Virus record (IMG/VR): IMGVR_UViG_2541047828_000005
Coordinates: 1-47,619 of that record
Reading direction: 5' to 3' (one strand)
From: a virus
Taxonomy: Duplodnaviria; Heunggongvirae; Uroviricota; Caudoviricetes
DNA: 47,619 bases
Both the position numbers and the translations under genes were made by a program. Below are positions 3,388-4,188 of this stretch, in pieces (the first letter of the stretch is position 1; the number at the start of each line of letters is the position of its first letter). Below the pieces are notes generated by a model. That model saw nothing but the letters and a program-made list of their open reading frames with translations, was not told the origin of the DNA and ran no database searches.

Positions 3388-4188
3388 TTAAGCGGCGTCG
3401 GTGAATTCAAATAAAAAACCGGCTTGCGCCGGCTCTCTCATCTTTCTGTCTACCCATGCTGATATCGATGGTGGGTGCACCTTTTCAATAGCTGCGCGAA
3501 GTACAGCTGTACGTGCCAGTTTGTCGGTAATCTCAGGAAATCGCTTCTCTGTCTTCGGTACGTTAACAGCAACATTAGTAGAATCCGCACTGGCGAACGG
3601 ATACATACCAAGAACTCTCACGTCGAGCATTCGAAGACCATGAATTTTCACTTTCAAATTACGATTGATATAAATCTCAGTAAAAACTTCATCCATTCTC
3701 TGTCCCCACCATTTAGAGCGTATGTGCCTGTGTGGGCCGCAGCATCCAATCGCCACCCATTCAAATTTGCCAGAAAGGCGTAAAAGACGTTCAATTGATT
3801 CGTCGGTATGCCAGACCGGAACCGCTTTTGATTTTAGCCAATCAGGAACCAACTCAATCTGCTCGTCGTTTTCTGCCTCTGTCCCTTCGATAACGTCAGG
3901 TATAAGAAACCATTCAATTCTGCTGAACCACTTCCCAACAAAGTCGTAGAATTTTGCTCGTCTCTTACTCCAGTCTACCGGAGTGCCTTTCTTTAATGCT
4001 TTCATCCAGTCGCTAAAAGCACCGTTATCAAGGCGTATATCACAAGGGAACATGGCAATCTTTTTCATCTGCTCTGGTCTGGCAAATGAAACAAAAGCCC
4101 CACCATCACGGTAAAGGGCTTTAATCAGCATATCTGTAGGGGCATGCTCATCACCCCATATTGGGCTGCCGTGAAAGTGGATGGTCAT
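3388..4188 (-). CDS. Hypothetical 266-aa protein with possible TGT-like (tRNA-guanine transglycosylase/DpdA) TIM-barrel motifs
   Basis: Complete ORF; by-eye motif resemblance to Tgt blocks (DNGAFS vs DSGGFQ; VAIGCCG vs AVGGLAVG; KIHGLRMLD...FASADSTN vs MGVGKP...FDCVMPTRN); not verified. Confidence 0.55.
   Translation of the reverse strand: MTIHFHGSPIWGDEHAPTDMLIKALYRDGGAFVSFARPEQMKKIAMFPCDIRLDNGAFSDWMKALKKGTPVDWSKRRAKFYDFVGKWFSRIEWFLIPDVIEGTEAENDEQIELVPDWLKSKAVPVWHTDESIERLLRLSGKFEWVAIGCCGPHRHIRSKWWGQRMDEVFTEIYINRNLKVKIHGLRMLDVRVLGMYPFASADSTNVAVNVPKTEKRFPEITDKLARTAVLRAAIEKVHPPSISAWVDRKMREPAQAGFLFEFTDAA

Follow-up and report, generated by a model that had tools for sequence, protein, structure and literature searches.

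A probable intrinsic terminator inside the last codons of a DpdA-like gene in a phage pL operon

In Bacillus subtilis, the gene brfA contains a functional and typical intrinsic terminator within its open reading frame (ORF), nine codons before the stop codon, and the arrangement in arfA of Escherichia coli is comparable (PMC6881298). Transcripts that end at these terminators have no stop codon and are substrates for trans-translation; the truncated product is the active form, and the arrangement senses the capacity of transfer-messenger RNA (tmRNA) in a feedback (PMC6881298). When the terminator tR2 was placed late in an E. coli ORF, with the stop codon 38 bp downstream, the trailing ribosome partly repressed termination without abolishing it, and about 40% of the activity was kept (PMC4824070). 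Processive antitermination, in turn, bypasses ordinary short-stem terminators (PMC10325885). Here we describe a hairpin, T1, which lies inside the last 15 codons of a 266-codon DpdA/TGT-like gene in a DNA of 47,619 nucleotides from a virus of the Caudoviricetes (IMG/VR record IMGVR_UViG_2541047828_000005; this whole stretch is called the window), and which is probably an intrinsic terminator that belongs to this gene and operates in a leftward operon of the lambda pL type.

On the coding strand, the end of the DpdA-like gene reads, 5' to 3', ...AGA GAG CCG GCG CAA GCC GGT TTT TTA TTT GAA TTC ACC GAC GCC GCT TAA. The hairpin and the U-tract that follows it are translated in this frame (GAG CCG GCG CAA GCC GGT TTT TTA TTT, E252-P-A-Q-A-G-F-L-F260); the hairpin begins 42 nucleotides (nt) and its run of six T (T6) ends 22 nt upstream of the TAA stop codon at 3390-3388. 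All five pairs of the core stem are G-C, and its folding energy is -9.1 kcal/mol; the 41-nt context of the hairpin folds with -17.2 kcal/mol (z = -5.0), and none of 200 shuffled sequences was equally stable. T1 is thus a GC-rich stem-loop on the transcribed (sense) strand with a U run directly 3' of the stem, and its tail score, 5.08, was among the highest in the window. The stem is preceded by a purine tract, the counterpart of which in relatives is AAAGAG, AAAGAA or AAAAAACAA. An A-tract upstream of the stem is a feature of many intrinsic terminators, and the purine tract of T1 is alike. T1 was also reported by a terminator-scanning program, at 3438-3413, with a total of 11 pairs if those between AGAGAG and the U run are included. 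The unusual property of T1 is its site, 22-42 nt before the stop codon; a place downstream of the stop codon or overlapping it is typical of intrinsic terminators but does not define them, as the example of brfA shows. On the plus strand the hairpin is followed by CTCTCTCAT, without a T-run, and a terminator for the opposite strand was rejected. A scan of positions 2400-4600 against Rfam at a permissive threshold gave two chance-level matches, none of them at T1. The initial annotation had already noted within this ORF, on the coding strand, a hairpin resembling a terminator (CCGGC-GCAA-GCCGG with U6, as found here), and had placed it 24-48 nt before the stop codon, close to the distances measured here; it was also right that any transcript ending at T1 would lack the stop codon, which lies downstream.

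Terminator scores were calculated on both strands of the window with our own function of the d'Aubenton-Carafa type, which combines the hairpin energy per nt with a weighted T tail. Just 16 sites scored positive in the 47.6 kb, and T1, with a score of 38.2, was second among them. The highest score, 38.7, belonged to the terminator of ORF55, the next gene downstream, and the homologues of the terminators tL4 and t'I scored 12.7 and 8.2, respectively. After 40 shuffles of the whole window in which dinucleotides were preserved, the mean number of positive sites was 0.65 and no site reached 38. In a recoding control the peptide VDRKMREPAQAGFLFEFTDAA was kept fixed and synonymous codons were redrawn from the codon usage of the family itself; the score was positive in 9% of the recodings, at least 30 in 0.65% and at least that of the real sequence in 0.15%. 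T1 had been called weak, which does not agree with a predicted strength that ties with the best in the window and outranks the homologue of an annotated terminator, tL4, though the stem has just five pairs. T1 is thus above chance, its structure has been kept in evolution, and we consider it very probable that this structure is under selection.

The evolutionary evidence comes in the first place from the DNA of diverged homologues in seven lineages that carry the hairpin and that we call clade A (the window, L085, L086, L090, L091, L093 and L005). Their proteins are 72-91% identical, and 51-64% of the codons for identical amino acids differ, so synonymous sites are near saturation. A single codon was used across all seven lineages in just 10 of the 157 degenerate codon columns in which the amino acid is invariant, and four of these ten were P253 (CCG), A256 (GCC), G257 (GGT) and F258 (TTT), that is, both arms of the stem and the start of the U-tract. 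By our own arithmetic, the hypergeometric probability for these four named columns all to be among the ten is 5040/584,624,040, or about 9e-6. The codons of the loop, A254 and Q255, varied at the usual rate, GCG CAA being exchanged with GCT CAG, and the codon after F258 was always TT(A/G). In a rough neighbour-joining tree L057, which has no hairpin, fell within the hairpin clade, and this suggests a secondary loss of the hairpin in that lineage.

Further evidence was found in a second clade, clade B, of the Klebsiella type (L056, L113 and L200), the proteins of which are about 42-45% identical. In the same frame these sequences read CCC GCT TCG GCG GGT TTT TTT, CCC GCT CCG GCG GGT TTT TAT and CCC GCT ACG GCG GGT TTT TTA, so that the RNA would be CCCGC-UUCG/UCCG/UACG-GCGGG followed by U7, U5 and U6. 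The sole pair that is not fixed by the amino acids, formed by the third positions of Pro and of the second Ala, is switched on both sides from G-C to C-G in clade B; in an alignment of ten hairpin sequences 50 of the 50 pair cells were paired, with this one G-C to C-G covariation. The UNCG tetraloop of clade B was kept and the residue that it encodes changes between Ser, Pro and Thr, a pattern that reads as conservation of the RNA and not of the protein.

Hairpins were also mapped across the DpdA-like family relative to an invariant Pro-Pro motif (PP, residues 239-240). In at least five lineages, whose stem sequences are unrelated, a hairpin starts 11-14 codons past PP, just behind the last helix. 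The loop of the terminator contains the stop codon in L097, L099/L100, L101 and L120 (for example AGC CCC TAA ATGGGGC-T10); the loops of clades A and B have no stop codon, and the ORF runs on through the 3' arm and the U-tract. In L104 the terminator CCCGCTTCGGCGGG-T6 stands directly past the stop codon. That the clade B hairpin might be the positional equivalent of the L104 terminator was rejected, the former being at PP+11 codons and the latter at PP+24, and the resemblance of the two appears to be convergent or due to transposition. An intergenic terminator on the plus strand of the window is identical to a hairpin that a Klebsiella prophage translates within its DpdA-like ORF (L056 2296-2320). 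A further variant was seen in L006 and L093 (also in L044), in which the DpdA-like ORF is fused in frame to a Dam methyltransferase domain (PF05869) to give 460 amino acids (L006 2001-3383). In L006 and L093 the conserved hairpin, with U6GUUG, is situated at the junction of the DpdA and Dam domains, and an in-frame ATG with AGGA before it follows 10 codons past the hairpin; Dam may also be translated separately in these two.

The product of the gene matched phrog_887 (E = 2e-102), and its AlphaFold model (predicted local distance difference test, pLDDT, 94) is a TIM barrel through residue 251, followed by a disordered tail with a pLDDT of 50-62. Sequence searches of Pfam, NCBIfam and the PDB with the protein or its profile gave nothing, so the TGT/DpdA assignment rests on PHROG, fold and context. 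A gene of the Vut_1/YhhQ type (queuosine-precursor transporter) stands upstream of the DpdA-like gene in most of the close relatives, with an ATGA overlap that amounts to translational coupling (L005 1648-2004 and L006 1540-2004, and upstream of the gene in L085, L086 and L090-L093). In the window and in HK106 the DpdA-like gene is alone, without the coupled transporter gene. The homologues of the protein number roughly 2200. A search of genome contigs with the single protein returned one locus only.

The coordinates of the features are given in Table 1. On the minus strand the order is pL/OL, the N-like gene, cIII, an insertion sequence (IS), ssb-like and abc2, LprI-like, the DpdA-like gene, ORF55, ORF114, xis and int. 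T1 is thus downstream of pL and of the N-like gene, on the same strand, and upstream of xis and int. In the pL/N region (9616-10276) nutL was not located. The N-like protein has a different arginine-rich N-terminus (MTRRTQFKGNSRSRRRERLKAK...), combined with an OL/pL of the lambda type, and the whole of 9616-10276 is a mosaic immunity/antitermination region. The IS codes for a DDE_Tnp_1_5/DDE_Tnp_1 transposase of 322 amino acids and has the cIII/recombinase-like genes on one side and the ssb-like gene on the other; it may exert a polar effect on all genes further downstream, the DpdA-like gene and xis/int among them.

Table 1. Positions of T1, of the DpdA-like gene and of the surrounding features in the window
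Feature	Position	Strand	Details
DpdA/TGT-like gene	3388-4188	-	266 codons; folded TIM barrel, residues 1-251; disordered tail, residues 252-266
Purine tract 5' of the T1 stem	3433-3439	-	GAGAGAG; A-U/G-U pairing with the U-tract possible
T1 hairpin	3419-3432	-	CCGGC 3432-3428, GNRA loop GCAA 3427-3424, GCCGG 3423-3419; Pro253-Ala-Gln-Ala-Gly257
T1 U-tract	3409-3418	-	T6 3418-3413, A 3412, TTT to 3409; (Gly)-Phe258-Leu-Phe260
T2, weak hairpin	3372-3395	-	CCGC 3395-3392, loop TTAAT with stop codon, GCGG 3386-3383, then ATTTCTTTTAT 3382-3372
T3	3340-3369 (hairpin 3369-3350)	-	GAACTCGC-TACG-GCGGGTTT, then TGTTTTATGG; -11 kcal/mol, z = -4.0
tL4 terminator	4198-4229	-	AATCCTCGC-ACTC-GCGGGGATT + TCTTTTAT; homologous to t-L4 of 434 and tL4 of HK022; -13.1 kcal/mol
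Direct repeat, upstream copy	4200-4212	-	GGATTTCTTTTAT, 13 nt; cassette junction
Direct repeat, downstream copy	3372-3384	-	GGATTTCTTTTAT, 13 nt; cassette junction; 434/HK022 homology resumes here
ORF55	3163-3330	-	next gene downstream of the DpdA-like gene
ORF55 terminator	3154-3173 (hairpin 3170-3157)	-	CCGCC-TGAT-GGCGG-T7; stop codon TGA of ORF55 in the loop
xis	2467-2685	-	distal gene of the leftward operon
int	1419-2489	-	distal gene of the leftward operon
IS	6334-7302	-	
N-like antiterminator gene	9616-9999	-	phrog_271, E = 4e-38
Lambda-type pL/OL	10276-10248	-	
Intergenic terminator	42359-42382	+	CCCGCTTCGGCGGG-T7-ATG

The homologue of tL4 is situated directly upstream of the ribosome-binding site and the start codon of the DpdA-like gene. 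In 434 (M60848, 2292-2322) and HK022 (X51962, 2417-2445) tL4 is annotated just upstream of ORF55; nothing relevant on tL4 was found in the literature, and it is known here from these GenBank annotations alone. Since homology to tL4, 434 and HK022 flanks the gene, the repeat is found at both junctions and the uninterrupted "empty" site is present in more than 2000 of 5426 complete E. coli genomes as against 79 with the gene, the DpdA-like gene is a cassette, about 830 bp long, that has entered the tail of tL4. No dedicated promoter was found for the cassette, and tL4 adjoins the ribosome-binding site of the gene, so its expression should depend on antiterminated transcription of the operon. T1 is distinct from tL4, and the identity of the two was rejected: tL4 aligns to 4229-4198 and, with its tail only, to 3384-3372, and there is no counterpart of T1 in 434 or HK022.

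T1, T2 and T3 are crowded within about 90 nt at the 3' end of the cassette. T2 is weak in the window (-6.8 kcal/mol, z = -1.6); its 5' arm (codons GCC GCT, Ala-Ala) comes from the cassette, and the second, downstream copy of the tL4 tail supplies its 3' arm and U-rich tail. A strong version of T2, GCCGCC-TAAG/TGAT-GGCGGC-T6 with the stop codon in the loop, is present in L090 and L091. T3 lies immediately upstream of the ribosome-binding site of ORF55 and is common to 434 and HK022, where it comes directly after tL4. The ORF55 terminator likewise holds a stop codon in its loop, so terminators that overlap gene ends would be the local norm, and a hairpin nearly identical to it ends the DpdA-like gene in L091. 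The exact T1 pattern was found in 38 viral contigs with the gene and in two remnants, which consist of the last ~90 nt of the gene (T1 and T2) beside unrelated upstream DNA (L053 1501-1600 and L054 1520-1610); the same remnant is present in at least one E. coli genome (NZ_OZ040950.1, H95). The remnants have two different junctions, corresponding to about 3477 and 3468 of the window, and the one in L054 is fused in frame to a new ORF of 51 codons. Directly past TTTTATCT there are different downstream partners in L024 and L201. Terminator tails thus serve as module junctions in these phages. We also noticed a record labelled "DH5alpha" with a match of 100%; it bears csc genes and taught us nothing further.

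The explanation that we favour, and hold to be probable, is that T1 acts as an intrinsic terminator of the cassette itself within the pL operon. On the best reading of the sequences, T1 belongs to the DpdA-like cassette and is placed exactly at the end of the folded domain. The gene would have long carried a terminator abutting that end, and the lineage of the window would have absorbed it into the reading frame: once a terminator that overlapped the stop codon had lost the stop from its loop, the ORF would extend through the U-tract, and Pro-Ala-Gln-Ala-Gly-Phe-Leu-Phe would be the translation of the terminator. Translation would then end nine codons later, in the loop of T2. A polymerase that is neither modified by N nor closely followed by a ribosome would release the RNA in the U-tract, at about 3412-3409, and T1 together with T2 and T3 would insulate ORF55-ORF114-xis-int and keep the downstream xis and int silent. 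A polymerase coming from pL and modified by N would pass T1, as it would the other tL terminators. T1 is located late in a translated ORF, so a closely coupled ribosome should mask it in part; T2 and T3, at and beyond the stop codon, would be the back-ups. Transcripts ending at T1, a minority, would have no stop codon and would be directed to tmRNA and trans-translation. The suggestion in the initial annotation that the element may be regulated is thus plausible, and would be accounted for by known routes, that is, by antitermination of the pL operon by N and by partial masking by the ribosome late in the ORF (PMC4824070).

Compared with the terminators of the tL series, such as tL4 of 434 and HK022, T1 is in the same operon, on the same strand and in the same neighbourhood, which extends from recombination and accessory genes to ORF55-xis-int; it is a short GC hairpin with a U-tract as well, and presumably is also read through by polymerase modified by N or put. 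It differs in being inside an ORF, whereas tL4 is between genes and its true homologue is found 770 nt upstream, and in having arrived with the DpdA-like cassette; together with the gene, T1 is also found in non-lambdoid contexts. Moron-type lambdoid cassettes were reportedly described by Juhala et al. in 2000 as accessory genes bracketed by their own transcription signals. The DpdA-like cassette is alike in that an accessory gene with a terminator of its own stands between conserved genes, and different in that no dedicated promoter was found and tL4 is directly upstream. With brfA and arfA, T1 shares the architecture of a Rho-independent terminator-like element in the ORF a few codons before the stop, nine in brfA and 6-14 in T1 depending on the counting point, and transcripts that end at T1 would likewise be substrates for trans-translation. 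In contrast to brfA and arfA, the residues past the T1 hairpin are conserved, relatives often have a stop codon in the loop and the element sits in an antiterminated operon, which means that gating by tmRNA is not required at T1. The tR2 constructs of Li et al. 2016 (PMC4824070) are similar in that the terminator stands near the end of a translated ORF, 38 bp before the stop codon in the construct and 22 nt before it in T1; the constructs were engineered and have the 8-bp stem of tR2, whereas T1 is natural, has a 5-bp stem and has been kept in evolution.

Several observations weigh against a terminator function of T1. Its stem of just 5 bp is at the short end for efficient terminators, and termination at T1 is a prediction from sequence. 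With tL4 already in front of the gene, an additional N-sensitive barrier behind it is partly redundant. In L006 and L093 the hairpin is about 200 codons before the stop codon of the DpdA-Dam fusion, a position that fits an efficient terminator poorly. The peptide Pro-Ala-x-Ala-Gly by itself determines four of the five pairs, and the covariation concerns a single pair and is essentially one event. In addition, the residues that follow the hairpin (Phe-Leu-Phe-Glu-Phe) are conserved in spite of synonymous changes, from which it follows that a constraint at the level of the protein operates too, and tails without a hairpin, EPYQSSFLFE and EPLQASFDF, keep a similar peptide.

The last of these points would be expected if the protein alone were constrained, the tail EPAQAGFLFEF having a function as a short linear motif, such as a degenerate motif for binding to the beta clamp, and the hairpin and the T-run being its by-product. 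At their extreme C-terminus, many members of the family carry textbook motifs for clamp binding (QLDLF, QLDMF, QLSLxL, QLQLF, QLSLEF, QLELL; proteins P0043, P0050, P0051, P0056, P0059, P0065, P0068-P0070, P0073, P0077, P0084 and P0085, loci L122-L136 and L178-L197). Such motifs are disordered, as is the tail of the window, where QAGFLF is degenerate in comparison with the QL[SD]LF / QxxLxF type; in this tail (3391-3435 on the minus strand, residues 252-266), QAGFLFEF may be a degenerate clamp-binding motif. The outgroup L008, L055 and L058 has no hairpin, yet it retains the peptide EP.Q..F.F, and Glu261 and Phe262 are conserved with synonymous changes, as said for the tail in general. The tail probably has a role at the protein level too, which would make the stretch dual-coding. 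As a full explanation, however, a peptide constraint is unlikely, as it does not account for third positions that are invariant in the stem and U-tract of seven lineages near synonymous saturation (p ~1e-5), for the rarity of recodings of the same peptide that score as well, for the retention of the UNCG loop and of GCT in clade B where the loop residue varies (S/P/T), or for the compensatory change at the free pair; it may hold alongside the terminator but cannot replace it. Literature searches gave no paper that links DpdA-type DNA transglycosylases with the sliding clamp, and nothing relevant on DpdA in connection with HK106. If the clamp link were true, the modification of DNA with 7-deazaguanine would be connected to the replisome. 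A bolder proposal is a dual-coding device, in which the 24 nt would be terminator and clamp-binding-like peptide at once, the full-length DpdA-like enzyme would be conditional on antitermination or tight coupling, and the product of the non-stop T1 transcripts would be destroyed via tmRNA as with arfA and brfA. We regard it as doubtful; if true, DNA hypermodification would be confined to lytic, N-driven replication.

Gating of the arfA/brfA kind would go in a similar direction: transcripts ended at T1 would be non-stop, their product would be SsrA-tagged and degraded, and stable DpdA-like protein would require antitermination (N-modified transcription), read-through of T1, or saturation of trans-translation. 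The resemblance to the architecture of brfA and arfA (PMC6881298) speaks for it, as do the maintenance of the in-ORF arrangement across clade A, its appearance in a second clade and the lowered expression from non-stop transcripts of the in-ORF tR2 in Li et al. (PMC4824070). We consider it improbable nevertheless: in many relatives the stop codon precedes the terminator or falls in its loop, so that non-stop transcripts are no general requirement of the family; in this prophage the gene is N-dependent already through tL4; a role of the truncated or tagged protein has no support; and the conservation of the residues past the hairpin points to the full-length product as the functional one. If the proposal held, control of the arfA/brfA type would be extended to a DNA-modification enzyme of a phage. 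Less probable still is that the element is not a terminator but a hairpin for stabilisation or processing of the mRNA 3' end, or a DNA recombination junction kept by module exchange. Module junctions do fall in terminator sequences, as in the tL4 repeat, the partners in L024 and L201 and the remnants in L053 and L054; however, the stem and the U-tract directly behind it have both been preserved by selection, a combination that marks a terminator, and the stem sequence was free to change as long as the pairing was kept, with stable GNRA and UNCG tetraloops favoured, where a DNA site would conserve the sequence. An RNase III site was rejected, the stem of T1 being too short for this enzyme. We also think it very unlikely that T1 is a recoding site at which -1 frameshifting on the in-phase heptamer U UUU UUA, or transcriptional slippage on the T-run, gives an alternative C-terminus. 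The window and most of clade A do have this heptamer of the HIV type (3412-3418 on the minus strand) in the right phase, as GGU UUU UUA, and by our own reading a -1 shift in the lineage with the DpdA-Dam fusion would soon meet a stop codon and yield DpdA as a separate protein. On the other side, the sole strong structure is upstream and not 5-9 nt downstream, T2 being weak and 16 nt away, the -1 frame of the window stops after two codons (GFFI*) with no meaningful product, and T6 is too short for efficient transcriptional slippage; GGU UUU UAU of L113 is not slippery and breaks the heptamer, and a -1 frameshift at T1 was rejected for the want of a downstream stimulator, the trivial product and this break. 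As to chance, short GC palindromes and T-rich codons do occur in ORFs, and in shuffled sequence a simple scan reports some 12 weak terminator-like sites for every 12 kb. The possibility that T1 is coincidental, raised in the initial annotation, is nevertheless countered by the fold z-score, the score rank, the shuffles, the recodings, the invariant synonymous sites of the seven lineages and the compensatory pair of clade B, and with the comparative data it is effectively refuted and hardly to be credited.

Having weighed these alternatives, we return to T1 as the terminator of the cassette. From the sequences compared, it would be a real and selected terminator of a known type, fairly ordinary, and it would call for no new principle. 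Its value is that of a natural and well-controlled case of a translated intrinsic terminator under selection, in which the codons of the stem and U-tract are frozen, the loop is free and a distant clade has a compensatory swap. For annotation, a position inside an ORF is by itself no reason to filter out a terminator, and tails of the form PAxAGF(F/L) can be translated terminators. For the biology of these phages, the locus presents a DpdA-like DNA-modification cassette inserted in tL4 of the pL operon, and terminator sequences that serve as junctions between modules.

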